Source: Gemmatimonadales bacterium
Lineage (GTDB): Bacteria > Gemmatimonadota > Gemmatimonadetes > Gemmatimonadales > GWC2-71-9
Length of the DNA: 20,185 nucleotides
Reading direction: 5' to 3'
Assembly (NCBI GenBank): GCA_039794085.1
Contig: JBDIWC010000060.1
Span: 1 to 20,185, forward strand
This document shows positions 5,050 through 20,104 of the stretch, piece after piece. Under the pieces are notes generated by a model. It was given only the letters and a program-made list of their open reading frames with translations, was not told the DNA's origin and made no database searches. Position 1 is the first letter of the stretch. Each line of letters starts with the position of its first letter. Both the position numbers and the translations under genes were made by a program.

Positions 5050-5417
5050 CACGAAAAGGCACGAAAAACACGAAAAAAAATAGGGGCTCATCCGGGTTTT
5101 GTATGGGTGAGAATGGGTGAGGGGAACCTCAACCCGCCATTTCCAGGGGCTCTTCATGCCCTCTTGAATTCGGAGGAAGGTGAGGGCCGGTGGCCAAGGC
5201 GGGGAGGGGCAGGGCCACAAGAAGCACAAAAGGCACACAAGGCACACGAAGCACGAGATCCCACGGAGGGGCTCGCTGTCCCCCACGCCGACTCGCTCGG
5301 GACCGGTGGGGTAGTGTTCCATCTGTGTCATCGCTGTCATCCGTGGTTTCTTCCGGGGGGAAGTGAGGCGCTCCGGCGCTCCGGTCGGCGGCTTTGTGCC
5401 TTTTGTGTTTTTTTGTG
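5050..5417. repeat. Degenerate 9-10 nt periodic repeat arrays in direct and inverted orientation
   Basis: CACGAAAA.. x3 (5050-5077). CACAAGAAG/CACAAAAGG/CACACAAGG/CACACGAAG/CACGAGATC (5216-5260). ATCTGTGTC/ATCGCTGTC/ATCCGTGGT (5321-5347). Reverse-complement array CTTTGTG/CCTTTTGTG/TTTTTTTGTG (5392-5417). Confidence 0.75.
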
Positions 5418-5418
5418 G

Positions 5419-5447
5419 TTGACCGCTAAGCCCTTCTCGGCTATACT
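5419..5447 (+). promoter_or_regulatory. Sigma70-type promoter for the tRNA pair
   Basis: TTGACC (5419-5424), 17 nt, TATACT (5442-5447), followed by a GC-rich discriminator-like CCCGCGCC. tRNA-Leu starts at 5461. Confidence 0.85.
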
Positions 5448-5460
5448 TTTCCCGCGCCAC

Positions 5461-5542
5461 GCCCTGGTGGTGAAACTGGTAGACACGCTATCTTGAGGGG
5501 GTAGTGCCGAAAGGCGTCGCGGTTCGAATCCGCGCCAGGGCA
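5461..5542 (+). tRNA. tRNA-Leu (GAG)
   Basis: Acceptor GCCCTGG/CCAGGGC, anticodon arm CTATC-TTGAGGG-GGTAG, long variable arm GCCGAAAGGC, T-loop GGTTCGAATCC. CCA not encoded. Confidence 0.96.
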
Positions 5543-5550
5543 TCGCAGGT

Positions 5551-5622
5551 GCCACTGTAGCTCAGCGGTAGAGCTCTCGATTCGTAATCGAGTGGTCGTC
5601 GGTTCGATTCCGACCAGTGGCT
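5551..5622 (+). tRNA. tRNA-Thr (CGT)
   Basis: Acceptor GCCACTG/CAGTGGC, D arm GCTC/GAGC, anticodon arm CTCGA-TTCGTAA-TCGAG, T arm GTCGG-TTCGATT-CCGAC. CCA not encoded. Confidence 0.96.
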
Positions 5623-5700
5623 CTCCCCCCCGATGTGAGTGTCGTGGCGTGCCCCCTCGACCGAGGCACGATATTCTGATCCCTGATCCCGCCGGTCGCA

Positions 5701-5718
5701 GTGTCACCCGCTGGTCAT
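5701..5718 (+). promoter_or_regulatory. Possible Pho-box-like site upstream of the polyphosphate operon
   Basis: GTGTCAC-CCGC-TGGTCAT: two GTCA(C/T) half-sites in 11-nt phase, resembling CTGTCAT-N4-CTGTCAC. About 80 nt upstream of the first gene. Confidence 0.3.
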
Positions 5719-5798
5719 TTCGGGAACCGCCGTCAGGGGGGGGAGCGTTCTCGGGGAGTGCCGGGCGGTCACACCGCACACCGGCAGGAGAGGGCTCT

Positions 5799-6713
5799 GT
5801 GTTGAAACCGCTGCATTACCTCGTGTTCCCCGCCGAATCCCCCGGGATCACGATCACGATCTACTATCTCTTCGTCATTCTCCTCGGGTGGCTGGTCCTG
5901 TGGCTGGTGCCCGACCTTCGCGGCGTCGTGTCGGGAGAGCGCCTGGCCGAGCTCGGCCGCACCGGCATCGAGTTCTCCTTCACCAATCCGAGTGCCGCCG
6001 CCCCCGGTCAATGGCTCTCGTGGCAGTTCGCCCTGTCACTCGGCGCCTCGATGGTCGGCGCCTTCCTCCTGATGATCCCGGCCACCTGGGTCTACATGGC
6101 CACCCGCCGCCGGAAGGGGTTCGACCAGAGCATCGTGCACACCATGGTCATCCTCGCCGTGGCCGTGTCGGGGGTGGTGGTGATCGTTCGAAACAGCGTG
6201 GCGTTGGCGTTCAGTCTGGCCGGCATTGTCGGAGCCGTCCGGTTCCGCCAGTCCCTGCAGGACACGCGCGACACCCTCTACATCTTCCTGTCCATCGGCG
6301 TGGGGCTCGCGGCCGGGGCCGAGGTGCTCGCGGCGGCGGCGGTGTTCTCCGCGGTGTTCAACTATCTGGTTCTGACCCTCTGGCGGGCGGACTACGGCCT
6401 CTGCGAGATCGGCACCCGGGCGGCCCATGTGCTCTACACCCGGGGAGAGGATCCCGCGGAGGCCAAGAAGGGGGGGCAGTTCAACGCGGTGCTGCTGGTG
6501 CGAACCCGGGATCCCGCGCAGGCCAAGAGCGCGGTGGAACCGTTGCTGGCCAAGCAACTCAAGCGGTGGCGTCTGGCCGAGGAGGACGTTCACGGCGAGG
6601 AAACGATCCTCAAATATCTCATCCGGCTCCGCAAGAGTGCCAAGCCGGGGGATGTCGAGGATGCGGTCCTCGTGGTCGGCGGTCCGTCCGTGATCGGAGC
6701 GAAGATTCATTGA
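5799..6713 (+). CDS. DUF4956-like integral membrane protein with C-terminal ACT-like domain
   Basis: Motif SVALAFSLAGIVGAVRFR...DTRDTLYIFLSIGVGLAAG typical of DUF4956, multiple TM helices. RBS GGAGAGG before GTG 5799 (TTG 5802 is an alternative start). Confidence 0.82.
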   Translation: MLKPLHYLVFPAESPGITITIYYLFVILLGWLVLWLVPDLRGVVSGERLAELGRTGIEFSFTNPSAAAPGQWLSWQFALSLGASMVGAFLLMIPATWVYMATRRRKGFDQSIVHTMVILAVAVSGVVVIVRNSVALAFSLAGIVGAVRFRQSLQDTRDTLYIFLSIGVGLAAGAEVLAAAAVFSAVFNYLVLTLWRADYGLCEIGTRAAHVLYTRGEDPAEAKKGGQFNAVLLVRTRDPAQAKSAVEPLLAKQLKRWRLAEEDVHGEETILKYLIRLRKSAKPGDVEDAVLVVGGPSVIGAKIH

Positions 6714-7579
6714 GCTTGCAGTTGCTGGTTGTCTCGGCTCTCGCCCTGGTTGGCTCCGGTCTACCGACGGCCCGCGATTCGGTCGGGGTTGAAACGGATC
6801 CTCTGCTCCCGGCCTGCCGGTGGACGGGCCCCGGGGTGGTGCGAAGTTCATTGCACCGGGTGCTCGAGGAGATCTCGGGACTGGCGGCCACTTCGGCGGG
6901 AACGCTCCTCGCCCACGATGATGAGCGGCCCGTGGTGCACGAGATCGACCCCCGGGATGGCGCGATCCTCCGCTCCTGGGCGATGCGCGGGGTGGGGCGG
7001 GTGGATCTCGAAGGGGTCGCGCTGGCCGAGGACAAAGTCTTCCTCATCACCAGCGACGGGATTCTGTTCGAGACCCGGGTGGCGCAGGATGGCGCGACGA
7101 TCCCGGCCACAGCGCTGGACACCCGGCTCGGGAGGCTCTGCGAGATCGAGGGACTGGCCTGGGACCCCGGGGACCGTGTGCTCCTCATCGCCTGCAAGAA
7201 CCCGCGGGCGCGCGGGCTCCGGGATCAGGTGACGATCTTTCGTTGGTCCGTCGACGAGCCCGGGTTGGAGATGCGGCGTCCCCATCTGGCCATTCCTCTC
7301 CCCGCGGTTCTCGATGTGGTGGGAGGGAAGCGGTTCCGGCCGAGCGGGATCGATCGGGACCCCCGAACCGGTCATTACCTGCTGGTGTCGGGACCCGATC
7401 ACGCCCTGGTCGAAATGACTCCGGAAGGAACGGTCGTCGCGGGGGTGTCCCTGAATCGACGCGATCACCCCCAGGCCGAGGGTGTGGCGGTTCTCCCCGG
7501 TCGCCGGGTGGCCATCTCGGACGAGCGGGCCGGCGGGAACCGATCGGGGACGCTGACCGTTTATCCCTGCGGAACATGA
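6710..7579 (+). CDS. Secreted SdiA-regulated/YjiK-like beta-propeller protein
   Basis: TTG start overlaps the upstream stop (TTGA). Hydrophobic N-terminus. Blade motifs EISGLA, AHDDE, DLEGVA, EIEGLAWD, RPSGI, QAEGVA, ISDE. Confidence 0.8.
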   Translation: MSLQLLVVSALALVGSGLPTARDSVGVETDPLLPACRWTGPGVVRSSLHRVLEEISGLAATSAGTLLAHDDERPVVHEIDPRDGAILRSWAMRGVGRVDLEGVALAEDKVFLITSDGILFETRVAQDGATIPATALDTRLGRLCEIEGLAWDPGDRVLLIACKNPRARGLRDQVTIFRWSVDEPGLEMRRPHLAIPLPAVLDVVGGKRFRPSGIDRDPRTGHYLLVSGPDHALVEMTPEGTVVAGVSLNRRDHPQAEGVAVLPGRRVAISDERAGGNRSGTLTVYPCGT

Positions 7580-8721
7580 CTCGCATTCATCGAGGGTTTT
7601 CTGCGATCACAATGGTGATCGCCGCGTGCACGTATGCACGGCCACTCCCGCCCGTCCCGGACGATCGACCCCCGGTGGCGGATCTGGCCTTCCGGCTCTT
7701 TCTCATCGGGGACGCAGGTGCCCCCTCGAGCTCCGACCCGGTGCTGCGTCACCTGGGCCAATCCCTCGCCGAAGCGCCGGAGCGGAGCCAGGCGATCTTC
7801 CTGGGCGACAACATCTATCCCCGCGGGCTCCCTGGACCGGGAGACCCGGACCGGGCCGAGGCGGAACGACGGCTGGCGGTGCAGGTGGACGCCGTGAAAG
7901 AGGCGGGAGCGGGAGCGGTCTTCGTGCCCGGCAACCACGACTGGGACAAGCATGGTCCCGAGGGATGGGACGCGATCCGGCGCCAGGCCGAGTTCATTCA
8001 GGATCGGGGAGGGTCGGCGATTTCGCTGTCCCCTGCGGGCGGGTGCCCCGGTCCTGTGGTGCGGGATTGGCCCCGGCTTCGGGTCATCTTCCTCGACACG
8101 CAGTGGTGGCTCCACGGGAACGCCCGGCCCGACGGCCCCGAGGATGGGTGCCCCACGTGGACCGAGGCCCAGGTGGCCGACTCGCTCCGGGGTGCTGTGG
8201 CCACCGCAGGTGACCGTCGGGTCGTGGTGACGACCCATCACCCGCTCGCCTCCGGAGGGGAGCATGGGGGCCACTTCGGCTGGACCCGGCACGTCTTCCC
8301 TTTCCGGGCCCTGAAGTCGTGGGCCTGGGTTCCGCTCCCGATCATCGGGTCGCTCTATCCCGCGATTCGGGCCTCGGGAGTGTCCGACCAGGACATCCCG
8401 GGGTCGGGAAACCGCCACATGCGGGAGGTGCTCGCCGCCGCCGTGGCGGAGCACCCCCCGCTGGTCTGGGCCGCCGGGCATGAGCACAATCTCCAGGTGA
8501 TCCGGGGAACGGTGGCGCGGCACCTTCTGGTGAGCGGGTCGGGGTACTTCGGCCATGGAGGTTTTGCCCAGTGGAGCGACTCCACGGTGTATGCCAGTGA
8601 CCGGAGCGGATACATGCGGCTGGACGTGCTGCCCGATGGGCGGGTGCGGCTGGCGGTAGTCGCCGTGGACAAAGAGGGAAACGGACGTGAGGCCTTTGCC
8701 GAATGGCTCGAGCATGAGTAA
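7576..8721 (+). CDS. Calcineurin-like metallophosphoesterase (purple acid phosphatase-like), probable lipoprotein
   Basis: ATGA overlap with the upstream stop. Lipobox-like VIAAC. Metal-binding motifs IGDAG, LGDNIY, PGNHDW, HHP, AGHEH. Confidence 0.9.
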   Translation: MTRIHRGFSAITMVIAACTYARPLPPVPDDRPPVADLAFRLFLIGDAGAPSSSDPVLRHLGQSLAEAPERSQAIFLGDNIYPRGLPGPGDPDRAEAERRLAVQVDAVKEAGAGAVFVPGNHDWDKHGPEGWDAIRRQAEFIQDRGGSAISLSPAGGCPGPVVRDWPRLRVIFLDTQWWLHGNARPDGPEDGCPTWTEAQVADSLRGAVATAGDRRVVVTTHHPLASGGEHGGHFGWTRHVFPFRALKSWAWVPLPIIGSLYPAIRASGVSDQDIPGSGNRHMREVLAAAVAEHPPLVWAAGHEHNLQVIRGTVARHLLVSGSGYFGHGGFAQWSDSTVYASDRSGYMRLDVLPDGRVRLAVVAVDKEGNGREAFAEWLEHE

Positions 8722-11284
8722 CGGAATCAGGATGAAAGGATGTCGCATGGCATGTCGCGCGTGGTGGGTTTCCGGTGCCTGTCTGGCAGGGGCGTTGCTG
8801 GGATCGTCGTCGGCGGAGGCGCAGGATTCGGTGACCGTGGTGCCGGGGGAGCAGTACGGCGCCGGTGCTCTGCATCGCTTCGTCTTCGGGGTGGGATACC
8901 GGGATCTCTGGACCACGCCGATCCGGGTGCCCGTGCTCGATCTCGGGCGGCATGAGGGAGGCCTCACCCCGATCAAGAAGGGAGGGGGACAGCAGACCGT
9001 GTCCCTCCGTTTCCGGGCCGCCGATGGCCGGGAATACTCGTTCCGGTCGGTGGACAAGGATCCGAGCTCCGTGCTGCCGGAGGACCTGCAGGGGTCGGTC
9101 GCCGAGAAGATCATCCGGGACCAGACCAGTTCGGCGCATCCGGTCGGTGCCATGGTCGTGGCCGAACTCCTGGAGGCGGTGGGTGTGTTGCACGCAAAGC
9201 CCCTGCTGGCCGTGATGCCCGACGATCCCCGGCTCGGGGAGTTCCGCGCCGAGTTCGCGGGCATGCTGGGCATGCTCGAACTCCGGCCCAACGAAGAGGA
9301 GAATCCGGAGGCCAGCTTCGCGGGGGCCATCGAAGTCGTGGGGTCGGAGAAGTTCCTGGAGGAGATCGGGAAGAACCCGTTCGTCCGCCCCGACGCCCGG
9401 GCCTTTCTGCGGGCCCGTCTCATGGACCTTTTTCTGGGAGACTGGGATCGCCACCGTGACCAGTGGCGGTGGGCCTTGATCGACAGCGACGGGCTCCGCC
9501 GCTGGGTTCCGATCCCGCGGGACCGGGACCAGGCCTTCGCCAAGTTTGACGGATTTCTCCTCCTGATCGGCCGCCAGTCCTTCCCCCAGTTCGTCAACTT
9601 CGGGGCCGGATATGCGGACATCACGGGACAGACCTGGAACGGCCGGGATCTCGACCGGTGGATCCTCCCCAACCTCACCTGGGAAACATGGCAGGAAGAG
9701 GCGACCGACCTGCAACGGCTCCTCACGGACGCGGCAGTCGAGCGGGCGGTGAACGTCCTCCCGCCCCCGTACCTTTCCCGGCAACGGGATCGGATGCTCC
9801 ACGCGTTGCGCCAGCGCCGGGACGATCTGGTGACGGAGGCCCGCACCTACTACCGGCTGCTGGCCCGGGAGGTCGACCTCCAGGCGAGCGATCGCAAGGA
9901 CAGCGCGGTGGTGACCCGAATGGGCGAGGGAGGAACGCGGGCTCAACTCTGGGCGGATGACGTGACGGCACCGTATTTCGATCGCACCTTTCTGAACGAG
10001 GAAACGAAGGACTTGCGGATCTGGCTGCGCGGGGACGACGACCTCGGCATCGTCCGGGGAAGCGGGGGCGGGCCGACCGTCCGGTTCCTGGGCGGGGGAA
10101 GCGATGATCGGTTCCGCAACGAGGCGAGTGACGGCCGGGTAAGGATCTATGATGACCGGGGGACCAACCACGCCGTGGGGGCATCGATCAACGACAAGCC
10201 GTATGTGACGGAGGCCGACTCGGTGCCTGGAGTGCTCCCTCCCCGTGACTGGGGGAGCGACCTGGACGTCTACCCCCTGGTGGGGTTCGCCCCGGACATC
10301 GGATTGCTGCTGAGCGTCAAGCCGTCCAAGACCTGGTTCGGGTTCCGCAAGCGTCCCCAGGCGAGCCGCCTCGCCCTCACGCTCTCCTGGGCCACGAGCC
10401 GGTCCACGATCAACGGAGAGCTGGAGGGGGACTGGTGGCGGGAGAACAGCGGGGTGCGGTTCGGATTTCGCGCCCGGGGTTCGGGGATCGAGGTGTTGCG
10501 GTGGTATGGCGACGGGAATAACTCGGTGCGGGGCCCGACCGACGAGTTCAACCGGGTCTCCATGCACATCCTCTCCTTCGCTCCCCACGTGGGGGTGGAT
10601 TTCGACGCCCGGAGCACCTTCGAGATCGGCCCGATGATCAAGTATTCGGTGACCGAACTCGATGGGGATAACGCAGACCGGTTCATCGCGATCGACCGAC
10701 CCTTCGGCGCCGAGCACATCGGGCAGGTGGGGGCCTTCGCGACGGTGCTGCTCGATGGACGGGATCGAGCCGTGGCCGCCACCGAGGGGGTGATGTTCCG
10801 GGCCGCGGGCTCGGTGTTTCCGGTGATCATCGCCGCGGATGGAGGCACCTTCGGGAGTGTGGAAGGGGAAACGGCGGGGTACTGGTCTCCCCTCGGCCCC
10901 AATGCTCCGACCCTGGCGCTGCGCCTGGGAGGACGCCGGGTCTGGGGTGACTATCCGTTCTTTGAAGCGGCTACGCTCGGCGGGTTCACCTCCCGCGGGT
11001 TTCGTCCCGGACGGTTCGCGGGGGATGCCGCCGTCTGGGCCAACGGGGAGGTCCGCCTCAAGGTCACCGACGCCACGCTGGTGGTCCCGGGGGAACTGGG
11101 CGTCTTCGGGTTCGGGGACGTGGGCCGGGTCTGGCTTGACGGAGAGGAGTCGGACCGGTGGCACCCGTCCGCGGGGGGGGGCGTCTGGTTCGGGATCCTG
11201 AAGCGCCGCATGACCGTGAGCATGTCCCTGGGGCGGAGCCGGGAAGGCACCCGGTTCTATGCGGGGTCGGGATTCGGGTTCTGA
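8714..11284 (+). CDS. Outer-membrane protein: N-terminal atypical-kinase-like domain, Gly/Asp-rich linker, C-terminal Omp85 (BamA/TamA-like) beta-barrel
   Basis: Signal peptide ending AEA|QD. Kinase-like motifs KGGGQQT, DLFLGDWDRHRDQW, PIPRDRDQAF. Barrel with loop motif RGFRPGRFAGD, FGDVGRVW and terminal GFGF. Start could be 8714, 8732 or 8747. Confidence 0.8.
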   Translation: MSNGIRMKGCRMACRAWWVSGACLAGALLGSSSAEAQDSVTVVPGEQYGAGALHRFVFGVGYRDLWTTPIRVPVLDLGRHEGGLTPIKKGGGQQTVSLRFRAADGREYSFRSVDKDPSSVLPEDLQGSVAEKIIRDQTSSAHPVGAMVVAELLEAVGVLHAKPLLAVMPDDPRLGEFRAEFAGMLGMLELRPNEEENPEASFAGAIEVVGSEKFLEEIGKNPFVRPDARAFLRARLMDLFLGDWDRHRDQWRWALIDSDGLRRWVPIPRDRDQAFAKFDGFLLLIGRQSFPQFVNFGAGYADITGQTWNGRDLDRWILPNLTWETWQEEATDLQRLLTDAAVERAVNVLPPPYLSRQRDRMLHALRQRRDDLVTEARTYYRLLAREVDLQASDRKDSAVVTRMGEGGTRAQLWADDVTAPYFDRTFLNEETKDLRIWLRGDDDLGIVRGSGGGPTVRFLGGGSDDRFRNEASDGRVRIYDDRGTNHAVGASINDKPYVTEADSVPGVLPPRDWGSDLDVYPLVGFAPDIGLLLSVKPSKTWFGFRKRPQASRLALTLSWATSRSTINGELEGDWWRENSGVRFGFRARGSGIEVLRWYGDGNNSVRGPTDEFNRVSMHILSFAPHVGVDFDARSTFEIGPMIKYSVTELDGDNADRFIAIDRPFGAEHIGQVGAFATVLLDGRDRAVAATEGVMFRAAGSVFPVIIAADGGTFGSVEGETAGYWSPLGPNAPTLALRLGGRRVWGDYPFFEAATLGGFTSRGFRPGRFAGDAAVWANGEVRLKVTDATLVVPGELGVFGFGDVGRVWLDGEESDRWHPSAGGGVWFGILKRRMTVSMSLGRSREGTRFYAGSGFGF

Positions 11285-11291
11285 GATCCGA

Positions 11292-14200
11292 ATGCCGGGA
11301 ACCCAGTTTCGGTGCGAGGTGGACGGGCTCGAGGCCCTGGCGTCGCTTCGGGAATCTCCTCTCCCGCTTGGGTTGAGGGCGGGGGCCCTCTCCCACAGCT
11401 TCCACCGGGATGTCTACCTCGACACGCCCGACTGTGCGCTCCGAAACCGCAAGGTGGCGTGTCGCCTGCGGATCGGGGCCAACGACCGCCGCTTCCTGGG
11501 TCTCCTGATGCCCGGCATGTCGGACGCCGACGACGAGGGGCGCTGGGAGGCCGAGGTCGAGGCCCTCGACCCCCGGGAAGCGGTGCTCGGCGACTCCGAA
11601 CCGGCCCGCCGCCTGCACGCCCTGGTCGATCCGACGGACCTGCGTCCCTGGCTGCAGGTCGAGACGGAACGCTGGATCCGCCCGGCCCGGTCCGGATGGT
11701 TCCGGCCGAGGGATCGTCTCCTCTTTCTCTACGACCACTGCATCGTCCGCTCCGGGGGCCTCGCGCGGGAGTTCCAGGAACTCGGGGTGAGGCGGGTCCA
11801 CGCGGGCGGCCCTTCCCTGGAGCGCATCGCGCGCGCCCTCGATGCCCGTCACGGTCTTCGCCCCACGCCCTATCCCAAGCATGAACGCGCCGCCGCCCTG
11901 TTGCACGCCGTGGAGGGGGAGGCCCTGGCCCGCGCGCTCGGCAGCGGGCGGTCGGTGGCCCTGCTCGCCGAGGATGAGGACCGGCTGGCGATGCTCGAGG
12001 TGGGTCGCGCCCTTCGGCTTCCCGTGGCCCGCGGAAGCGGGGAGGATGCGGTGCGGTATCTCCTGCGCCGTACCTTCGGCAGCGCCGTGGGAGACCTCGC
12101 GCTTCACGGCGTGGCACCCGGGAGCAGCGTCCGGCCCGCCGTGGAAGTGTGGTCGGCCCGGCGGATCCGGACCGATGGGGAGGGAGAGGGATCGGAGCCT
12201 ATCCGCTGGCTTCCCCTCGCCGAGATCCTCGGCCGGGTCGGGGAACCGGGCCTGCGCGATCCGGAAACCCTGGCCGCTCTCGCGGTGCTGGCTCGGTCGA
12301 GCCCCCAGTCGGCCGCCGTGGCGCTCCGGGCCTCCTCGTGGCGCACGGAGGGAGAGCGCGGGGCTCCGGTGACGGGAACCCGTCCGGTCATGGGGGAGGA
12401 CCTGGCCCGCGACGCGGATCGCGATGCGCTCCAGGAACATGCCGGATATCCCCCGGAGCATTTCCTCAACGCCGAGCTGAGCCAGATCGCCTTCAACCTC
12501 CGGGTGCTTGAACTGTCGGAGGATCGTCAGGTTCCCCTGCTCGAGCGACTCCGCTATCTCGCCATTGTCTCCAGCAACCTGGACGAGTTCTTCGCCGTGC
12601 GGGTCGGCGCCCTGAAGGAACGGACCATGCTGGCCCCCGAACGGCGCAGTCCGGACGGGATGACCGCCGAGCAGGAGCTCGATGCCGTCGCCGCCCGGGT
12701 CCCCGACATCGTCCAGCGGCAGCAACGGTGTCTCGACGAGTGCCTACACGGGCTCCGCACCCGGGGGGTGCACCTCCGGCGCTGGGGGGAACTGGCCGAC
12801 GAGGCCCGGGAGCGGCTGCGGGACCACTTTCGCTCCGAGCTGCTTCCGGACCTCACACCGCGCACCCTGACCTTGAGTCCGGGGCATCCTTTCCCTGTCA
12901 TGCCGGATCGGGTGCTGTCGTTCGCCCTCATGCTGCGGGACGACCGCAGTGGGCCCTTTCATTTTGCCTATCTGCGTCTTCCACCGCACTTGGCCCGATT
13001 CCTCCCGGTCGGCCCCCCCGGGCAGTACATCCGGCTGGAGGAGGTGGTGCGGTCCGACCTGGCGGCCCTGTACCCCGACCGGGTCGTGGAGCAGGCCTGG
13101 CTCTTCCGGGTCACCCGGAGCGCGGATCTCGACGTGGAGGAGGAGGAGGCCGGTGACTTCCTTCAAGCCATCGAGGAGGAGGTGGCCCGGCGGAGTCTCA
13201 ACCCGCCGGTGCGGGTGGAGGTGGAGCAGGGAATGCCGCGGACGCTCCGGAGCCTCCTCCTGCGCGAACTCCGATTTGAGCAACGGGAGGATCCCACCCC
13301 TCTCGGGGAAATGGATGTCTACGACATCCCCGGGGTAATGGATCTGAGCACTCTGCCCACCTTGGCCGCGCTGGCCGAAACGAAACTCGGCGCCGAGGCT
13401 CGGGGGCAGCGCCTCACCTTCCCGCCGTTCATCCCGCGGGATGCCCTGCCAATGGAGGCCTCCCTGTGGGAGACCATCCGGGCCGGGGACCAGCTCGTCC
13501 ACCATCCGTATGACGCCTTCCGCACCTCGACCCAGCGCTTCCTGGAGGAGGCGGCCGCCGATCCCCGCGTGACCACCATCAAGATGACGCTCTATCGCGC
13601 GGGCGACGTGTCCCCGGTCGTGGATGCCCTCTGCCGCGCCGCCGAGTCGGGCAAGGATGTCGCCGTGTTCGTGGAACTGAAGGCCCGCTTCGATGAGCGC
13701 CGGAACATCGCCGCCGTGGAACGGATGGAGGGGGCGGGGGTGCAGGTCATCTATGGTGTGGTGGGGCTCAAGAATCATGCGAAGGTGACCCTCGTGGTGC
13801 GACGGGAAGACGATCGGGTCCACCAGTACGCTCACATCGGGACCGGGAACTACAACGCCTCCACCGCCCGGTTCTACACCGACCTCGGCCTGCTCACCGC
13901 CGATCCCGCCATCACCGCCGACCTGACCGATCTGTTCAATCAGTTGACCGGAACCTCGGCGAGTCCGCGGGGAGTGTTCCGCCGCCTGCTGGTGGCTCCA
14001 GCCACCATGCTGGAGGGGTTCTGCGGTCTGATTGCGCGGGAGGAGGCCCACGCGCGGGCGGGCCGGCCGGCGCGGATCCGGGCGCAGCTCAACGGGCTCG
14101 ACGAGCCCGAGATCATCGAAGCACTCTATCGGGCCTCGGGAGCCGGGGTCCGGATCGAGCTGCTGGTGCGCGGGCTCTGCACCCTGCGCCCGGGACTCGC

Positions 14201-14537
14201 GGGGCTGTCGGAGCAGATCCGGGTGCGGAGCGTCCTGGGACGCTTCCTCGAACACGCCCGGATCTACCACTTTGCGAATGGTGGGGAGGGAGACGAATAC
14301 TTCATCGGGTCGGCCGACTGGCGGCGGCGCAATCTTCGCCGGAGGGTCGAGGTGGCCGTTCCCGTTCGGGATCCCATTCTGATGGATCGGCTCGACCGGA
14401 TTCTGACGGGCGGGCTCACCGAACCCGCAGGCTGGGAGCTCGACTCCGATGGAGGGTACGGGCGCCAGCAGTCCATCAGAAACGGGGTCCCTCATCTTCA
14501 CGATCGGGGAGGAGAGGTGTCCGGAACGGATGCATGA
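11292..14537 (+). CDS. ppk1: Polyphosphate kinase 1 with N-terminal CYTH-like and Nudix-like extensions
   Basis: PPK1 motifs SSNLDEFFAVRV, PGHPFP, HHPYD, TLYR, ELKARFDE, GLKNHAK, YAHIGTGNYN, LVRG, RFLEHARIY, GSADW..RNL.RRVE. About 385 extra N-terminal residues. ATG lies 7 nt after the upstream stop. Confidence 0.93.
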   Translation: MPGTQFRCEVDGLEALASLRESPLPLGLRAGALSHSFHRDVYLDTPDCALRNRKVACRLRIGANDRRFLGLLMPGMSDADDEGRWEAEVEALDPREAVLGDSEPARRLHALVDPTDLRPWLQVETERWIRPARSGWFRPRDRLLFLYDHCIVRSGGLAREFQELGVRRVHAGGPSLERIARALDARHGLRPTPYPKHERAAALLHAVEGEALARALGSGRSVALLAEDEDRLAMLEVGRALRLPVARGSGEDAVRYLLRRTFGSAVGDLALHGVAPGSSVRPAVEVWSARRIRTDGEGEGSEPIRWLPLAEILGRVGEPGLRDPETLAALAVLARSSPQSAAVALRASSWRTEGERGAPVTGTRPVMGEDLARDADRDALQEHAGYPPEHFLNAELSQIAFNLRVLELSEDRQVPLLERLRYLAIVSSNLDEFFAVRVGALKERTMLAPERRSPDGMTAEQELDAVAARVPDIVQRQQRCLDECLHGLRTRGVHLRRWGELADEARERLRDHFRSELLPDLTPRTLTLSPGHPFPVMPDRVLSFALMLRDDRSGPFHFAYLRLPPHLARFLPVGPPGQYIRLEEVVRSDLAALYPDRVVEQAWLFRVTRSADLDVEEEEAGDFLQAIEEEVARRSLNPPVRVEVEQGMPRTLRSLLLRELRFEQREDPTPLGEMDVYDIPGVMDLSTLPTLAALAETKLGAEARGQRLTFPPFIPRDALPMEASLWETIRAGDQLVHHPYDAFRTSTQRFLEEAAADPRVTTIKMTLYRAGDVSPVVDALCRAAESGKDVAVFVELKARFDERRNIAAVERMEGAGVQVIYGVVGLKNHAKVTLVVRREDDRVHQYAHIGTGNYNASTARFYTDLGLLTADPAITADLTDLFNQLTGTSASPRGVFRRLLVAPATMLEGFCGLIAREEAHARAGRPARIRAQLNGLDEPEIIEALYRASGAGVRIELLVRGLCTLRPGLAGLSEQIRVRSVLGRFLEHARIYHFANGGEGDEYFIGSADWRRRNLRRRVEVAVPVRDPILMDRLDRILTGGLTEPAGWELDSDGGYGRQQSIRNGVPHLHDRGGEVSGTDA

Positions 14538-14576: not shown

Positions 14577-14768
14577 ATGATCAAAATGATCATCGGACTC
14601 GGAGTCGGGTTCGGGATCGGGGTCGGGAGCCGGTGGCTGGGCATCCCCTCCCCCGCACCCCAGGCCATCGCAGGCGCGTTTCTGGTGCTGTCGATGACCG
14701 TGGGGTACCTGGCGATGGGGGCGTGGATGAATCGTCGCCGGGCCGGTGCCGGCCGGGGGGAGGACTGA
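14577..14768 (+). CDS. XapX/DUF1427-like small membrane protein
   Basis: RBS AGGAGAG. TM-(IPSPAP)-TM architecture ending MTVGY. Confidence 0.78.
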   Translation: MIKMIIGLGVGFGIGVGSRWLGIPSPAPQAIAGAFLVLSMTVGYLAMGAWMNRRRAGAGRGED

Positions 14769-14923
14769 TGCTGGCCCAGGCGATGGGATACCTCCTCGCC
14801 TTCCTGGTGGGGGCCCTGTGCCGCCGGTTCGACGTGCCCCTTCCGGCGCCCCCGAAACTGCTCGGCGCCATACTCGTGGTGGTGATGACGGTGGGATACC
14901 TGGTGGGCGGGGAGATGATGTAG
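14768..14923 (+). CDS. XapX/DUF1427-like small membrane protein, second paralogue
   Basis: TGATG overlap and GGAGG RBS. MLAQAMGYLLAFLVGALCRRFDVPLPAPPKLLGAILVVVMTVGY has the same architecture. Confidence 0.78.
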   Translation: MLAQAMGYLLAFLVGALCRRFDVPLPAPPKLLGAILVVVMTVGYLVGGEMM

Positions 14924-15244: not shown

Positions 15245-15395
15245 GGAGGACATAGGACGAGGAGGACATAGGACATAGGATATAGGACTTAGGACAAGAG
15301 CACAGCAGGACCTCGACTCGTTAAGACCTAGGTCCTATGTCCTAGGTTCTAGGTCCTGTCCCAAAGGCCGGAGAGAACACCAGTTCTCGGGACGT
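15245..15395 (+). repeat. Direct repeat copy 2 (151 bp), overlapping the first 8 nt of tRNA-Pro
   Basis: As copy 1 but with one extra heptamer unit. Ends in CGGGACGT, the tRNA-Pro 5' end. Confidence 0.92.
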
Positions 15396-15461
15396 AGCGC
15401 AGCCCGGTAGCGCACCTGAATGGGGTTCAGGGGGTCGCGGGTTCGAATCCCGCCGTCCCGA
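15388..15461 (+). tRNA. tRNA-Pro (GGG)
   Basis: Acceptor CGGGACG/CGTCCCG, D arm GCGC/GCGC, anticodon arm CCTGA-ATGGGGT-TCAGG, T arm GCGGG-TTCGAAT-CCCGC. CCA not encoded. Confidence 0.96.
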
Positions 15462-15464
15462 CTG

Positions 15465-15494
15465 GAAAAGGCGAGCCAATTGGCTCGCCTTTTC
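15465..15494. terminator. Bidirectional intrinsic terminator
   Basis: Perfect 30-bp palindrome GAAAAGGCGAGCCAATTGGCTCGCCTTTTC with A and T tracts, directly after tRNA-Pro. Confidence 0.85.
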
Positions 15495-15549
15495 TGTGTC
15501 GGGACGCCGGGCTGGGCGATCCCCCCGCAGTCCCAGCACCCAACCCTCC

Positions 15550-15637
15550 GGGTTCTGGGTTCTGGGTATCGGGTGTTGGGCCCAGCCCCGCAGTTCCCAG
15601 TACCCAGCACCCAAGGCCCAATACCCCAATCCCCAAC
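15550..15637. repeat. Inverted heptamer arrays (STRR-like)
   Basis: GGGTTCT GGGTTCT GGGTATC GGGTGTT GGG, then CCCAGTA CCCAGCA CCCAAGG CCCAATA CCCCAAT CCCCAAC. Confidence 0.75.
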
Positions 15638-15885
15638 CGCTCGCTCGCGGCATCCGGATCGAATCCCGCACCCAGAGGGCTGGCGAGTAGGACAGCCCAC
15701 ATCGCCAAGCCCTGACGTCGGCCGCTCCGGGATTCCTCGTCAGTCCTCGTCAAAGGCACCCTCATGGCCCCTCGCCGCCGGGGCCAGCATGGAGCCCTCG
15801 GGGAGGTCGTGGGGCGCCACTTGGTGTAGGCAGCGGAGTTCCGGAGGGACTTCCCTCCGGGGTCAAATATTGTAGCGGGCGCAGT

Positions 15886-16200
15886 CTACGCGGTTATCCC
15901 CTTCGGTGCAGAATCAGTTGCTCCCTTGAGCGCAGAAAGGTGGGGGGTGGCCACCACCTGCCATGACTCCAGCCGGATTATCTTCGAAACTGAGGCTGCC
16001 CTTTCCTCCCGGAGTAGGGACTGCCACCGCTCGAAGAGGATTTTGAGGTCCTCCAAGGCCTCATCCTTAGTTCCCCCTTGGGCGATACACCCCTCATGCC
16101 CGGGGTACCAAGCTGCAAAGAGATCGACCCCTTGGGTTCCGGTCTCTTTGCGAACGACAGGTGTCGGCAAGTCGCTCGGGATTTCATTGCGGCGGTTCAT
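15886..16200 (-). CDS. HicB-like antitoxin (N-terminal HicB domain only)
   Basis: AWYPGHEGCIAQGGTKDEALEDL matches the HicB P..pGc..qG.T.eEA motif. ATGA overlap with the upstream gene. Confidence 0.75.
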   Translation of the reverse strand: MNRRNEIPSDLPTPVVRKETGTQGVDLFAAWYPGHEGCIAQGGTKDEALEDLKILFERWQSLLREERAASVSKIIRLESWQVVATPHLSALKGATDSAPKGITA

Positions 16201-16472
16201 GTTCTCTCACTCCTGACGTTCTCGACGAGGCGGATGGCCATTTGAATAGTAGACGGCGGAAGGTTCTCTGACGAGTACACGATCAAATAATGTGTGTCCT
16301 TTCGGCCTGGCCAAAACCATGAGACAATCCTCACCCCACGGGAGGATCCCAACTCCTGAAACCTAAAACCATATGCCGCAAGAAGGGCGCCAACATCGAT
16401 GTAACCCCATCCCTTCGGATCTTCCTTCATTTCCTTGAGGAGGCGCTCTCCCTTCTGCTCGTCTGGAATCAC
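16197..16472 (-). CDS. Divergent HicA-like toxin
   Basis: 91 aa from a GTG that overlaps the upstream stop (GTGA). K.ERLL.EM..DP.GW...DV..LL..YGF pattern and a C-terminal helix as in HicA-type proteins. Directly upstream of the HicB-like gene. Confidence 0.6.
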   Translation of the reverse strand: MIPDEQKGERLLKEMKEDPKGWGYIDVGALLAAYGFRFQELGSSRGVRIVSWFWPGRKDTHYLIVYSSENLPPSTIQMAIRLVENVRSERT

Positions 16473-16894
16473 TGGGTGGGTGGCTGGGCAGGAGGTAGAG
16501 TCTCTCCTTGGACAACGGTGAACGGGATCCGTGCCGCTTCCTCTCCATTCCAACTCAGGACGAAGGAGTACTCCCCGTATCGTGGAAACTGCAGGTTGGG
16601 AAATGGGAGCGCCAAGCTGAACGTACGACTTTGTCCGGCAGGAATCTGGTCCGATTTGACTTCACCCTGTCCTTCGATGAGATGATGCCCGTCCTCGTCC
16701 CTGAGATAGACACGTATCGCGTGCGACTTACTGCCATCCTGGAACTCCAGCCGGAGCCGGAGTGCGACCACCATGGTCGGAACCCCGGCTGGTAGCGTGG
16801 GTGAGGTGATCCGATCGAAGACGCCCATGATATTGAGCTTCCCGCCGTCGGCGACGTTCGCATAATCCGCCAAGACAGCCACTTCAACCACCAT
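16469..16894 (-). CDS. DUF6941-like beta-sandwich protein
   Basis: RBS AAAGGA. MVVEVAVLADYANVADGGKLNIMGVFDRI...L.FPRYGEYSF.L..NG......PF.V pattern, 141 aa. Confidence 0.75.
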   Translation of the reverse strand: MVVEVAVLADYANVADGGKLNIMGVFDRITSPTLPAGVPTMVVALRLRLEFQDGSKSHAIRVYLRDEDGHHLIEGQGEVKSDQIPAGQSRTFSLALPFPNLQFPRYGEYSFVLSWNGEEAARIPFTVVQGETLPPAQPPTQ

Positions 16895-17163
16895 GAGAGG
16901 TCCTTTTGAGTCGAGGGATGTTCGGGCTAGGGTGAGGGCCCTGCACCACCCCCTGGTGGAACTATTTGCCCTACTTGACCGCGGTGGAGATTGGTGAAGT
17001 AATCCGATCGCTCCCAGAAGGTAGCCACGACTTGGTGGTCCGTCCATGGTTGCCCATGCTCGTACCCCGACCGGGAACGAGCGGGAACTGCTGGGGTAGA
17101 TCCTTGCATGGACCCTCTTTGAGGCATACACTCCGGAACTGACTCCAACCCCGAGGGGTTCCA

Positions 17164-17601
17164 ATGGCTAGACGGCTTCTCGCACGGGTCCTCCTTCTCG
17201 GCGCCCTAGCCGCCCCGGCGTGCTCGTCGTCCACTACTCTGGCTTTATCTCCGCCCCCGCCTCCTCCGCCACCACCTCCGCCGCCTCCTCCGGCCCCCGC
17301 GCCACGGTGTTCCGGCGGTCAGTTGTGCGCCCTGGGGTGGGAGGTCGCCGCGCAAGCCGGGGATACGACGTGGGTCATTACGGCCCGGATCTGGAATGAT
17401 GGCCCGACGTGCGCCACAGCCATTGAGGGGAGAGGGTTCCACGGGCCCGGGGGAGTACATACGTTCCGCTCCCCCCGGGACATGCCCGAGCCTCTCTTGG
17501 CCCGCCAAGAAGGACTCGCCAAGTTCGGTGCGACGACTCTGGCAGCGACGCAACTGGATTCCATTCGGATTATCGGATGGACGCCGGGGTCGTGCGGGTG
17601 A
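17164..17601 (+). CDS. Hypothetical exported protein, probable lipoprotein with polyproline linker
   Basis: GAGGGG RBS, MARR plus hydrophobic stretch plus AAPAC, polyproline run encoded by mixed codons, small beta-rich domain with four further Cys. Confidence 0.6.
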   Translation: MARRLLARVLLLGALAAPACSSSTTLALSPPPPPPPPPPPPPPAPAPRCSGGQLCALGWEVAAQAGDTTWVITARIWNDGPTCATAIEGRGFHGPGGVHTFRSPRDMPEPLLARQEGLAKFGATTLAATQLDSIRIIGWTPGSCG

Positions 17602-17880
17602 GGGGCCATCCCGGGGGGTTGATGTAGCCGGGAAGTGTGCGTGAGCGGTGGGCAGTCCGTAGACAGTTCATCTGGGTTCTCGACCAACAACCTTCGCTTC
17701 GGCGTGGACACGGCAAGGGTCAGGTATGGCACTGTCATTTCTATCACAACCCAAGGACCGAGACTCGGGTCCCTCGAGCGCAATGCTCGAACTAGGCGTC
17801 GGCCGGGTCAATCTGTTGAGACTGATCGGGTGACTAGGATTCCTGCGCTTCTCGGAGCTGCCTATGATGACTCCGCAGTG

Positions 17881-19656
17881 ATGCCTGTCGACATAGACTG
17901 CTATTTCGCCAAGCGCGATATGGCGCTGAGGGCGATCGAGCGTATGAAGGACTCCGAAGACACGGAGGCCATTGATCATTTGTGGTGGGAAGTAGCCCTG
18001 TTGCGCTTTAGTCCGGTGGCGAGTAATGGTGGCTGCTATATGGGTGACTCGTATGAAGTATTCGCCGTAAAGTTCGGCCTCACGCCGGAAACGGTACGTT
18101 TCGCTGACACGCGGGCAGTTGAGACACGAGATATTGCGCTCAAGCTTCATTATCTCGGCTTCGTCCTCGACAGGATGCCTCCAACGGGGAGAGCGTGGGT
18201 TGACCGAATGCGAGAGATGCTCCTTTCGTGGCGGCAGTATGCTGACGAATGTCGAATGGCAGCTGCCACTAACCCCACAGGGCACGCGGCCATGTGCGTT
18301 GAGCGTGCCCTGAAAGCTATCGGAGCGATTACGTCACGCCCCGGTGTTCTGCGCGACATGGAACCCACTGAATGGGCAGGATGGGTGTTGCAGCTCGCGC
18401 ACGACGTCCGTGACTTTCCAGGAGACGAGTCGGATGAATCGGACTTCTGGTATCATCGCTGGGTGGCTCCCTTTCTTCGAACGCTCACTAGTCTGCCCGC
18501 GACGGCTTCTCCTCCGCCCTTGCGCCATCAAGCCTTTGCGTTACTGGAGGCCGCAGCGGCCTACTATGAAGCATCCCCCCTGGCGGACCATTTCGCGCTC
18601 CTTGTTGCCGACGTGCGTTATGAGCTCCGAACACACTGGGGGGAGACCGATGCTCATAAGGACAAGGTGAGGGAACAGTTCGCTGCACTTATGCGCCGCG
18701 CCGACCTGCACAAGACGACCGGCAATGGGATGCTTACTCAGCATTTCGTTCGCGAGGCGCTACGTCTGGCGGAGGAGCATCGGCAGTATTTCACGGCAGC
18801 TCAGGTTGACGACTTGATGCGCGAAGAAAGAGCCGCAATAGAACACGCGATCCGAGCAGGTGAGTTCAAGGAGGTGTCGGTGTCGATGGAATTCCCTCGC
18901 GAATATGTCGAGCGATTGCGGGCCACCCCCGAAGAGACAATGTCAGATCTCATAGCCGAAGTTGCGATACCAGTGCCAACGACAGGGTTGCGAGAAGCAG
19001 CGGCTAAGGGTGAGACCCCCCCGCTGTACTTGCTTTTCCCCGCAACAGTGGTGGGGGGTGGGAAGGTTGTAGGCGAGTCACCTGGTGAGGAGAAGAATCT
19101 ACAACTTGAGGGTGAGCGCAACGCACTTTTTCTCGCGGCCCTCGCTGGCCAAGCGATGACCACGACAATTGTCAGTGCCGCTTCCCGCATCGGGCTGACG
19201 ACCGAGCACCTTATTACTCCCCTCACCCCGCTCGCGCTTGATGATGGCACAATAGGACTGATCCGTCATGGGTGTGAGCGGATGATTGCCAAGGACTTTA
19301 TTTCTGCATGCCATATCCTCGTACCTCGTGTGGAGGATGTGCTGAGGCAGCATCTCCGGTCACGCGGCCTTCCCGCGACCGAGTTCAAGCGGGACGTAGG
19401 TGATGGTACGAGCCGGACCGACGACGAATCGGTGGGTGCCATGCTGAGGGGCTGTCTACCAAACGGCATCACGGTACGCGCCTACCTAGGAGACGAGTTC
19501 ACGCAACATATCGAGAGAACGATGTTGTCGCAGACCGGACTAACGCTGCGCCATTCGTTTGCGCACGGGTTGGCCAAACCGGAGCACTGCACACCGGACA
19601 ATGCGGGGATTGTCCTTGCCATTCTGTACAAGCTTGCGGCAATAGCTAGTTCCTAG
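17881..19656 (+). CDS. DUF4209-like protein with C-terminal HEPN-type RxxxxH motif
   Basis: Long helical ORF in lower-GC DNA. C-terminal DFISACHILVPRVEDVLR...GLTLRHSFAHGL. Start uncertain: open from 17635, first ATG at 17881. Confidence 0.72.
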   Translation: MPVDIDCYFAKRDMALRAIERMKDSEDTEAIDHLWWEVALLRFSPVASNGGCYMGDSYEVFAVKFGLTPETVRFADTRAVETRDIALKLHYLGFVLDRMPPTGRAWVDRMREMLLSWRQYADECRMAAATNPTGHAAMCVERALKAIGAITSRPGVLRDMEPTEWAGWVLQLAHDVRDFPGDESDESDFWYHRWVAPFLRTLTSLPATASPPPLRHQAFALLEAAAAYYEASPLADHFALLVADVRYELRTHWGETDAHKDKVREQFAALMRRADLHKTTGNGMLTQHFVREALRLAEEHRQYFTAAQVDDLMREERAAIEHAIRAGEFKEVSVSMEFPREYVERLRATPEETMSDLIAEVAIPVPTTGLREAAAKGETPPLYLLFPATVVGGGKVVGESPGEEKNLQLEGERNALFLAALAGQAMTTTIVSAASRIGLTTEHLITPLTPLALDDGTIGLIRHGCERMIAKDFISACHILVPRVEDVLRQHLRSRGLPATEFKRDVGDGTSRTDDESVGAMLRGCLPNGITVRAYLGDEFTQHIERTMLSQTGLTLRHSFAHGLAKPEHCTPDNAGIVLAILYKLAAIASS

Positions 19657-19807
19657 ACTCCTAGGGCGGTCCGTATGGCGCGTTGCGCTATTCCGATTAG
19701 GAGACAAACCGTGCCGCGCTAATGTCATACCTATTCCCCGAGATTTGGGCCTTGGCCTTCTGGATGTCCTCCACAGAGCACTCGGGCCACCGTGCGGAGT
19801 GCTGGGA

Positions 19808-19836
19808 TTGATCTTCCCGACCGATATAATTACATT
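19808..19836 (+). promoter_or_regulatory. Sigma70-type promoter for the XRE gene
   Basis: TTGATC (19808-13), 17 nt, TACATT (19831-36). An adjacent perfect TATAAT lies at 19825-30. Confidence 0.55.
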
Positions 19837-19843
19837 CATTTAC

Positions 19844-20104
19844 ATGGTCGCCACCCTTCCTCGTCGTCTCGCACAGGCCCGCCGGGCCCGGGGCCTCAGC
19901 CAAGCAGGGCTTGCCCAAGCTGCGGGGGTGCCCCACTCCATGACGATCTCCGCGTGGGAACGCGGGGTGAACCTCCCCCGGGTGGACGACCTGGCTACGA
20001 TGGCGGGTGTGCTCGGCGTGTCCTTGGACTGGCTCTGCGGCCTGACGGCGGAGGGAGGCCCCCTGTGTCAGGATAGTTGTCGCATCGCCCGTCACCTTCT
20101 GTGA
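19844..20104 (+). CDS. XRE/Cro-CI family HTH transcriptional regulator
   Basis: RLAQARRARGLSQAGLAQAAGV...TISAWERGVNLP....L..MA.VLGVSLDWLCG is a canonical HTH_XRE. Confidence 0.9.
   Translation: MVATLPRRLAQARRARGLSQAGLAQAAGVPHSMTISAWERGVNLPRVDDLATMAGVLGVSLDWLCGLTAEGGPLCQDSCRIARHLL

Follow-up and report, generated by a model that had tools for sequence, protein, structure and literature searches.

What might two degenerate hydrolase-type domains be doing in front of a polyphosphate kinase? PPK1 is ordinarily a cytoplasmic enzyme made up of just four domains, and the question is raised by a gene of a Gemmatimonadales bacterium (assembly GCA_039794085.1, contig JBDIWC010000060.1; the stretch analysed, 20,185 nucleotides long, is called the window), in which a PPK1 core follows a CYTH-like, i.e. 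triphosphate-tunnel (TTM), domain and a Nudix-like domain. The answer that we prefer, and to which we would give a probability of about 45%, is a membrane-coupled PPK1 whose tunnel, no longer catalytic, would bind polyphosphate (polyP) and guide it toward the membrane protein DUF4956 and the enzymes of the envelope.

The reading frame runs from ATG 11292 to TGA 14537 and is open across 1081 residues. All the motifs quoted in an earlier note on this DNA, which was made from the letters alone, lie in this single frame (Table 1), and the N-termini of homologues in the alignment agree with a start at 11292 rather than at the ATG 11259 that precedes it. Four PPK1 domains of Pfam (PF13089, PF02503, PF17941 and PF13090) are found at residues 391-1061, and the protein scores 682 bits against TIGR03705 (cut-off 466). 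R375, H435, H454, Y468, R564, H592 and E623 of the E. coli enzyme, of which we take R375, Y468, R564 and E623 to be catalytic or ATP-site residues, correspond to R769, H829, H848, Y862, R960, H988 and E1020. Equivalents of R375, Y468, H592 and E623 are present in 145 out of 145 fused proteins and that of H435 in 143, and the H454 position is variable (Y in 17). H435 and H592 are described as catalytic in E. coli PPK1 (PMC6537752); the KNHAK and RFLEH motifs, in which the earlier note had recognised the catalytic histidines, carry H829 and H988. As far as sequence tells, the catalytic residues of this PPK1, the only one found in its source genome (94.7% complete), are intact.

The CYTH pattern that had been read at the N-terminus is borne out by profile and by model. 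On the isolated N-terminal part PF01928 gives 23.5 bits, just above its cut-off of 23.2, and with E<=1 it recognises 38 of the 40 members of the alignment; the family profile retrieves E. coli YgiF (E 1.8e-5). A single-sequence search of the PDB with the N-terminus gave no match, nor did NCBIfam on that part. An AlphaFold2 model of residues 1-345, built from 149 sequences, has a predicted local confidence (pLDDT) of 92.4, and its residues 3-207 superimpose on YgiF (PDB 5A60/5A61) with Z 16.6 and a root-mean-square deviation (rmsd) of 3.3 Å over 188 aligned residues, in a tie with 2gfg; Foldseek gives E 1.3e-9 for the tunnel against YgiF, and the Z scores are 12.6 with Vtc4 (3g3q) and 12.3 with Vtc2 (3g3o). 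A TTM fold with a plug helix is thus predicted with high confidence.

According to Martinez et al. (PMC4641920), metal site 1 of YgiF is the invariant E160, site 2 consists of E4, E6 and E162, and the substitutions E6A, E160A and R56A each impair the enzyme. The window tunnel retains R7, D40-x-Y42, R58, R60, R127, D148, E163, K196 and R199, and has G3, Q5, L72, G165 and R167 in place of YgiF E4, E6, K69, E160 and E162. The lack of the N-terminal ExExK motif had been pointed out before from the letters TQFRC; the segment reads G3-T-Q5-F-R7. When the YgiF residues were mapped onto 142 tunnel domains of homologues (<80% identity), R56 was found to be kept in 124, R58 in 132, R126 in 138, K8 (as K or R) in 118, R188 in 132 and D143 in 139; the DxY motif has D, N or E in 138 and Y or F in 135, and the position of E158 is acidic in 112. 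Acidic residues occupy E4 in 28 and E6 in 55 of the 142 domains, and a basic one occupies K69 in 29. The metal-1 position (E160) is acidic in 16 and lost in 126, while the third metal-2 position (E162) is acidic in 4 and basic in 91. ExExK/R is absent from all 142, no domain has the four glutamates together, and wherever the metal-1 acid is kept (16 homologues) E6 is missing. Catalytic loss in the tunnel therefore exceeds what had been claimed, since the metal-1 Glu and the third metal-2 Glu are also replaced, the latter mostly by basic residues. At the plug-helix lysine position (K196 in the window protein, equivalent to Vtc4 K458) there is K in 40, R in 50 and another residue in 52 domains.

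Register and side-chain directions in the tunnel come from alignments, not from coordinates. With HMMER, with hhalign and with the intact CYTH and CYTH-CHAD proteins of the phylum, E-x-E-x-E falls ungapped onto residues 163/165/167, and in four alignments the YgiF partner of E163 is E158 rather than the metal-1 Glu (E160); because these four agree on the ungapped register, both metal sites are taken as lost, and from the missing ligands the tunnel looks catalytically dead. An alternative register, in which E163 would be the metal-1 Glu of a Vtc4-like E-x-K, is less likely, since the CYTH-CHAD proteins align ungapped on 163/165/167. The homologues with the metal-1 acid (P0039, P0054, P0070, L045 and others), several of which have lost R56 or R58, represent a second route of decay in the tunnel. 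The source genome also encodes a separate stand-alone CYTH protein (L002:1495-2097, on G000:C41) with an intact ETEVK motif.

The next 120 residues or so, for which a Nudix fold without the REUxEExG glutamates had been proposed, match no Pfam family by sequence, and by profile they weakly match a Thermus ADP-ribose pyrophosphatase (E 0.08). In the model, residues 217-341 superimpose on NudE (1vhg) with Z 14.4 and rmsd 2.7 over 123 aligned residues, and many further Nudix structures follow: other ADP-sugar hydrolases at Z 13-14, Ddp1/DIPP1 at 11.5-11.6 and NrtR at 11.4. Tunnel and Nudix fold thus both appear, with high confidence, in the predicted structure, and the second is nearest to the ADP-sugar/ADP-ribose hydrolases; its match with NudE begins only at NudE residue 47. 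The helix of the Nudix box, defined as GX5EX7REUXEEXGU (PMC2330246), has no catalytic glutamates in the window protein. Neither this box nor RE..EE.G occurs in any of 124 homologues, and the positions aligned to NudE E16 and E20 are never acidic in them; conserved in the domain are G248, G250, E251, R255, E285, W287, W306 and R335. Given the missing metal ligands, this domain looks catalytically dead too. A search for stand-alone pseudo-Nudix proteins of 70-226 aa returned one match among 356 candidates, a fragment also carrying CYTH pieces; other lengths were not searched in this way. There is no helix-turn-helix (HTH) match in Pfam or NCBIfam, the domain being followed directly by a variable linker and then PPK1. 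(p)ppGpp had been named as one possible ligand of the two folds; no result of the analysis points to it.

How widespread is the architecture? Of 7993 candidates scored in a search with residues 1-385, 39 proteins share this N-terminal region; every one of them has PPK1 domains, and those with a taxon in their name belong to Gemmatimonadales or Gemmatimonadota. The CYTH-Nudix module is present in 50 of the 301 genomes assigned to Gemmatimonadota by their source names (27 of 126 genera); tallies on these 301 include one genome flagged as unpublished (G155), which enters no other result. A profile search returned the same 50 genomes and two weak matches, both with intact ExExK and E-x-E-x-E, the one that was scanned being a CYTH-CHAD protein. 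Among the best 150 of 3342 profile matches in a representative library, every protein of at least 900 residues has a PPK1 core behind the module; most of the shorter ones are fragments, in some the core is degenerate or incomplete, and a handful, P0092 and P0161 among them, appear to be mis-called read-throughs that lack PPK1. In all, 80 full-length CYTH-Nudix-PPK1 proteins were collected. A pattern scan of genome contigs found one close relative only, and an Atlas lookup with a homologue gave only its own PPK1 clusters, in which Gemmatimonadota are commonest. In public runs, contigs reach across the Omp85-CYTH-Nudix stretch (X5, from a related strain) and across the Nudix-PPK1 junction (X1, which may be from the source sample). 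Ratios of nonsynonymous to synonymous substitution rates (dN/dS), obtained by simple counting on GC-rich DNA, are 0.11-0.78 for the tunnel and 0.02-0.45 for the Nudix domain (8 pairs each), below 1 in all 8 pairs for both and of the same order as in the PPK1 core (0.09-0.37, 7 pairs): by this measure both N-terminal domains are under purifying selection.

Several variants were seen. In L035:8270-11626 (a single-contig genome) the fusion is frameshifted twice, perhaps through sequencing error, and in L037:6325-9358 it is split after the head domain. A subtype of about 640-725 aa (L036:7579-9702, P0075 and P0155) has CYTH and Nudix followed only by a degenerate PPK1 N/head part, without the catalytic C domains; it is possibly a wholly non-catalytic adaptor, and in L036 it still adjoins DUF4956. 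Two fused paralogues occur in several genomes (G158, G041, G034, G172, G211 and G224); those of G158 (L041 and L042, on G158:C38) are about 10 kb apart on opposite strands.

PPK1 was found in 254 of the 301 genomes. Carriers of the module have at least two PPK1 matches in 36 cases out of 50, and a single one in 14, the source genome among them. In an IQ-TREE tree of 51 cores chosen from 166 (quick mode, with no mixture model, no approximately unbiased test and a long E. coli outgroup), the 38 fused rows group together against 13 plain PPK1s, with a support of 100 by the SH-like approximate likelihood-ratio test (SH-aLRT); FastTree on 105 rows returns the same group, with a local support of only 0.435. 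In these trees the fused proteins form a PPK1 clade of their own, usually present as a second copy.

A connection with DUF4956, also part of the earlier note, came out both in gene neighbourhoods and in fusions. Of 20 fused stretches, 16 have DUF4956 nearby (two of the four without it end at contig edges), and of 20 plain-ppk1 stretches of about 11 kb, none does; a long DUF4956 occurs in 44 of the 50 module-carrying genomes against 86 of the other 251. Kin among these genomes and loci are not independent, and the counts overstate the association. Outside this set of 20 and 20, exceptions are seen in L049 and L137-L139, where a plain ppk1 is close to the fused locus. P0044, which joins four parts as DUF4956-CYTH-Nudix-PPK1, came to light in the representative search. 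Its first 330 residues match 60 proteins among 7994 candidates, in 59 of which DUF4956 is joined to PPK1; with the loci added, there are 52 full-length direct DUF4956-PPK1 fusions (915-950 aa) and 7 four-part ones, one of which was read within a genome locus (L156). All of them nest inside the fused PPK1 clade, the four-part form at two places of the tree, as does a Nudix-less form (6 proteins, also at two places). Because the direct and the Nudix-less fusions nest there, the N-terminal domains appear sheddable and the tie with DUF4956 steady: on the trees, this is a kinase clade bound to DUF4956 from which the two N-terminal domains can be lost. The model of DUF4956 has a helical membrane domain and a C-terminal ACT-like domain, a layout like that of MgtC. 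Its fold search gave only ACT-type matches, at residues 225-304 and near-tied (Z up to 9.3; 8.7 for the C-terminal domain of MgtC), and no clear match for the membrane part, which does not show that the fold is new. In the PPK1 fusions the DUF4956 profile never matches past position 245 of 341, i.e. the ACT-like tail is gone in all of them.

Two further observations concern DUF4956. In L137:3051-11634, L138 and L139 a direct DUF4956-PPK1 fusion is convergent with a plain ppk1, which in L137 lies inside a ppx - ppk1 - histidine phosphatase - CHAD operon. The source genome has two further long DUF4956 genes (L170:6548-10455 on G000:C19 and L171:5521-6579 on G000:C15), one accompanied by a CotH-like gene and a divergent phosphodiesterase, the other without a recognised partner.

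One proposal of the earlier note did not stand, namely that the CYTH tunnel could replace VTC, the polymerase usually found with DUF4956. None of 40 alignment members matches PF09359 (VTC) at E<=1, and in hhalign the tunnel family scores 93.6% with YgiF as compared with 61.9% with 11 VTC proteins of the phylum, the bacterial rows of which keep E-x-K at the metal-1 position. Because the tunnel is nearer to YgiF-type CYTH-CHAD proteins than to VTC and lacks the metal-1 Glu of Vtc4, it is the PPK1 core, and not the tunnel, that occupies the polymerase place of VTC. Moreover, a true VTC-DUF4956-CotH cassette exists elsewhere in the same genome (on contig C7, Table 1), and the 52 direct DUF4956-PPK1 fusions have neither CYTH nor Nudix. 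PF09359 is found in 16 of the 301 genomes, and a short DUF4956 stands beside VTC in all 12 loci examined; that of the C7 cassette weakly matches MgtC. The window operon and the C7 cassette are made of the same kinds of parts.

Table 1. Features of the fusion gene, of its likely operon and of the related cassette (window positions unless a locus is named)
Feature	Position	Strand	Residues or content	Basis
DUF4956 membrane protein, first gene of likely operon	5799..6713	+		Pfam, model
SdiA-regulated family protein, likely exported	6710..7579	+	signal-peptide-like start	Pfam, N-terminus read
Calcineurin-like metallophosphoesterase, likely lipoprotein	7582..8721	+	lipobox-like start	Pfam, N-terminus read
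Outer-membrane protein	8687..11284	+	N-terminal kinase-like motifs, C-terminal Omp85-type barrel	family scan, motifs
CYTH-like/Nudix-like/PPK1 fusion gene	11292..14537	+	1081 aa	ORF (open reading frame), Pfam, TIGR03705
Degenerate triphosphate-tunnel (CYTH/TTM) domain	11298..11912	+	3-207	Pfam, profile, model, residue mapping
CYTH-part motifs			TQFRC 4-8, RDVYLDTPDCALRNRKVACRLR 39-60, QVETER 122-127, FLYDHCIV 145-152, FQELGV 161-166, PKHERA 195-200	
Pseudo-Nudix domain	11940..12314	+	217-341	profile, model, residue mapping
Nudix-part motifs			SVALLAEDEDRL 221-232, LRLPVARG 241-248, EDAVRYLLRRTFG 251-263, IRWLPLAEIL 304-313	
Variable, poorly conserved linker	12315..12458	+	342-389	homologue alignment; pLDDT <50 at 340-345
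PPK1 core (N, head, C1, C2)	12459..14474	+		Pfam, residue mapping
PPK1-core motifs			KNHAK 827-831, RFLEH 984-988	
Two tandem small XapX-domain membrane protein genes, 3' of fusion	14577..14923	+		family scan
Classic cassette in source genome	L169 (G000:C7), about 3400-13550		glycosyltransferase, polysaccharide flippase, VTC (PF09359), short DUF4956, TPR (tetratricopeptide repeat), CotH/beta-helix protein, metallophosphoesterase	

In the window, the Omp85 gene stops 7 bp before the fusion gene. Its N-terminal region (8687-10000) has kinase-like motifs (DWDRH...DRD), a likeness at motif level only: compared by profile to the CotH-like family and to a CotH protein, it aligns in its catalytic-loop-like motifs, though not significantly, and a PDB sequence search with this region gave no match. 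Among the 20 fused stretches a CotH-like gene is present in 10 and a kinase-like Omp85 in 6, never both together, and neither was found in any of the 20 plain-ppk1 stretches. None of the other loci inspected showed the XapX pair. In L035, L041, L047, L048, L050 and L156 the fusion has Ser/Thr kinase genes beside it, some of them containing TPR repeats. Neither a sigma-70-like site (5419-5447) nor the four terminator-like sites rise above chance. Directly 5' of the DUF4956 gene are tRNA-Leu and tRNA-Thr (5461-5623), and farther upstream (1795-4950; 186-1710) a 1051-aa Vps10/BNR-repeat protein, an outer-membrane beta-barrel protein and a SURF1 gene. After tRNA-Pro (15388-15462) the GC content drops to 0.57-0.63, and the stretch 15388-20185, with a DUF6941 gene, a weak DUF4209 match (17635-19656) and a repressor-type HTH gene (19745-20104), is probably the edge of an integrated element. 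Two small unassigned ORFs at 15886-16553 in this stretch, without Pfam match, resemble a toxin-antitoxin pair.

How could these parts work together? PPK1, with its conserved catalytic residues, would make polyP. Of the two folds predicted ahead of it, neither should be able to hydrolyse, the metal ligands being gone, and the pseudo-Nudix domain may be a nucleotide-binding or structural accessory. The kinase would be coupled to the membrane through DUF4956, a coupling that is visible as adjacency or fusion and that we extend to the unfused form. In the last and weakest step, the basic tunnel would hold polyP, shield it from cutting and hand it to DUF4956, which would pass phosphate or polyP on to the exported proteins of the operon, kinase-like ones and phosphatases alike. 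As for the origin, a YgiF-type triphosphatase may have lost its metals, kept its arginine-lined tunnel, swapped CHAD, a polyP-binding domain (PMC6537752), for the pseudo-Nudix domain and joined PPK1. By analogy, the scheme mirrors the VTC-DUF4956-CotH cassette with PPK1 as the polymerase, and the dead tunnel may be akin to the inactive tunnels of Vtc2/Vtc3. In its boldest form, which we consider doubtful, the system would be the Gemmatimonadota counterpart of the eukaryotic VTC, assembled from other parts: a dedicated PPK1 docked on or fused to a DUF4956 channel, and a metal-free, arginine-lined tunnel, a convergent equivalent of Vtc2/3, that threads nascent polyP into this channel. Once over the inner membrane, the polyP would donate phosphoryl groups to exported CotH-like and outer-membrane kinases.

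Several findings weigh against a polyP-guiding, membrane-coupled PPK1. DUF4956 is present in 130 of the 301 genomes as compared with 50 for the module, and 6 of these 50 gave no DUF4956 match. At 15 out of 15 long-DUF4956 loci sampled in module-less genomes there is no PPK1 within about 8 kb, and a CotH-like gene adjoins 13 of them; the exported CotH-like protein, because of these 13 against no PPK1, is the steadier partner of DUF4956. Both N-terminal domains are dispensable in relatives, as the 52 direct fusions and the 6 Nudix-less proteins show, and the plug-helix position is K or R in only 90 of the 142 tunnels. That the exported partners are kinases is read from motifs and one sub-cut-off CotH match (E 0.0019). 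Finally, because the fused protein is the sole PPK1 found in 14 of the 50 genomes, it probably also serves ordinary cytoplasmic storage of polyP.

Of the other explanations, the one that survives best, although it is itself unlikely, makes the two domains allosteric sensors: the tunnel would bind ATP, inorganic triphosphate (PPPi) or another triphosphate and the pseudo-Nudix domain an ADP-linked metabolite, thereby switching PPK1 without any hand-over of chains. NrtR, described as using a Nudix domain of perturbed signature as its ADP-ribose effector domain (PMC2330246), appears in the list of fold matches; purifying selection acts on the two domains, which are conserved, and their loss in some lineages would suit an optional regulator. 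However, the tie with DUF4956 is left unexplained, and the shift from acidic residues to Arg/Lys in the tunnel suits a polyanion better than a metal-nucleotide. ADP-ribose hydrolases, besides, use their N-terminal part for dimer-based substrate binding, and this part is missing here, as the NudE match starts at residue 47.

It is improbable, in our opinion, that the domains are ligand-free docking or scaffold modules, attaching PPK1 to the ACT-like tail of DUF4956 or setting its oligomeric state. In the direct DUF4956-PPK1 fusions the ACT-like tail and the CYTH-Nudix pair are gone together, as expected for an interface, and the near-invariant R39, E124 and R130 fall, judged by alternation along the tunnel strands, on their outer face; but the seven four-part fusions keep CYTH-Nudix though the tail is gone, and the inward arginines and DxY, unneeded for pure docking, are as conserved as the outer residues. 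Altered catalysis in the tunnel, with E163 (together with D148 or E86) as metal ligand, trimming PPPi or making a primer for PPK1, seems to us quite improbable. It could appeal to the conservation of an acid at E163 (112/142), of D148 (139/142) and of the catalytic arginine (YgiF R56; 124/142), to the metal-1 Glu of 16 homologues, and to Vtc4, which is reported to keep metal site 1, with basic residues replacing the acidic patch, so that a TTM works without site 2 (PMC4641920). Against it, E163 aligns with E158 of YgiF and not with E160, the E6A and E160A substitutions each impair YgiF according to the same paper, and the 16 homologues are all without E6, the window protein having G165 and Q5.

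A PPK1 acting mainly in reverse, making ATP from stored polyP beside DUF4956 for the exported kinases, with the tunnel feeding it polyP, is very unlikely. PPK1 is described as reversible (PMC12526157), an exported kinase-like gene is present at 16 of the 20 fused stretches, and some DUF4956-PPK1 fusions face a ppx-ppk1-sixA-CHAD operon already making polyP; yet as the sole PPK1 found in 14 of the 50 genomes the enzyme must probably synthesise. That the fusion could be an assembly or frameshift artefact confined to one contig, or a decaying leftover, deserves practically no credence: a few loci are indeed broken or split (L035 and L037), but the full-length fusions number 80, the module occurs in 50 genomes and in 39 PPK1-bearing proteins, dN/dS is below 1 and public contigs run across the junctions.

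With E. coli Ppk the window protein shares the four-domain core (33% identity over 668 columns, catalytic residues kept), and it differs by about 390 extra N-terminal residues in two folds; from plain bacterial PPK1s it differs in belonging to a separate clade with DUF4956 and envelope genes as neighbours. YgiF-type CYTH-CHAD proteins are the best fold and profile match, intact ones from the same phylum being the nearest non-fused matches, and the substrate arginines and DxY are kept; however, ExExK, K69, the metal sites and CHAD are missing, and there are a pseudo-Nudix domain and PPK1 instead. Yeast VTC resembles it in the TTM fold, in the basic residues found where hydrolases carry an acidic patch (as described in PMC4641920), and in a polymerase tied to a membrane domain, Vtc2 being listed as catalytically inactive (PMC12526157). 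The differences are that PF09359 does not match, the metal-1 Glu is gone, the polymerase is PPK1 and the membrane partner DUF4956, the coupling being genomic, by adjacency and fusion. The effector domains of NrtR/AraR likewise combine a broken signature with a Nudix fold near that of ADP-ribose hydrolases; unlike NrtR/AraR, the window protein has no winged-helix DNA-binding domain, and its Nudix domain is fused to an enzyme.

In Gram-positive pel loci the accessory genes are reported to be cotH, a VTC-domain polyP polymerase and DUF4956, and in S. intermedius mutants in the MgtC/ACT membrane gene and in cotH lowered Pel-dependent aggregation (PMC7112168; PMC12345266). The likeness lies in a polymerase gene, a DUF4956 (membrane plus ACT) gene and an exported kinase-type gene adjoining one another, and the C7 cassette of the source genome is itself of the kind reported from these loci. 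In contrast, the window has a PPK1 fusion as polymerase, a longer DUF4956 subfamily and no polysaccharide genes nearby, and the partners at fused loci are a kinase-like Omp85 or a distant CotH-like protein. The literature search brought up no account of PPK1 fused to CYTH-Nudix or to DUF4956, subscription journals lying mostly outside it. The nearest printed precedent, as a review describes it (PMC12526157), is the PPK1 of the red alga C. merolae, which also has a Nudix fold in the same chain. It is eukaryotic and its Nudix hydrolase is of the DIPP family, whereas the Nudix domain of the window protein has no box and is closer to ADP-sugar hydrolases (Z 14.4) than to Ddp1 (11.6), and a TTM domain and DUF4956 are added.

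The architecture is of interest mainly through its tie with DUF4956: a PPK1 clade with a pseudo-triphosphatase tunnel and a pseudo-Nudix domain links an uncharacterised family of membrane proteins to polyP. The direct DUF4956-PPK1 fusions provide single-chain constructs for asking whether bacteria can make polyP at the inner membrane and let it pass across. The finding may thus bear on the source of surface or periplasmic polyP and on the fuel of extracytoplasmic kinases such as CotH. Even if export should prove wrong, the two domains would be a new regulatory or polyP-binding addition to PPK1, in a widespread and mostly uncultured phylum.

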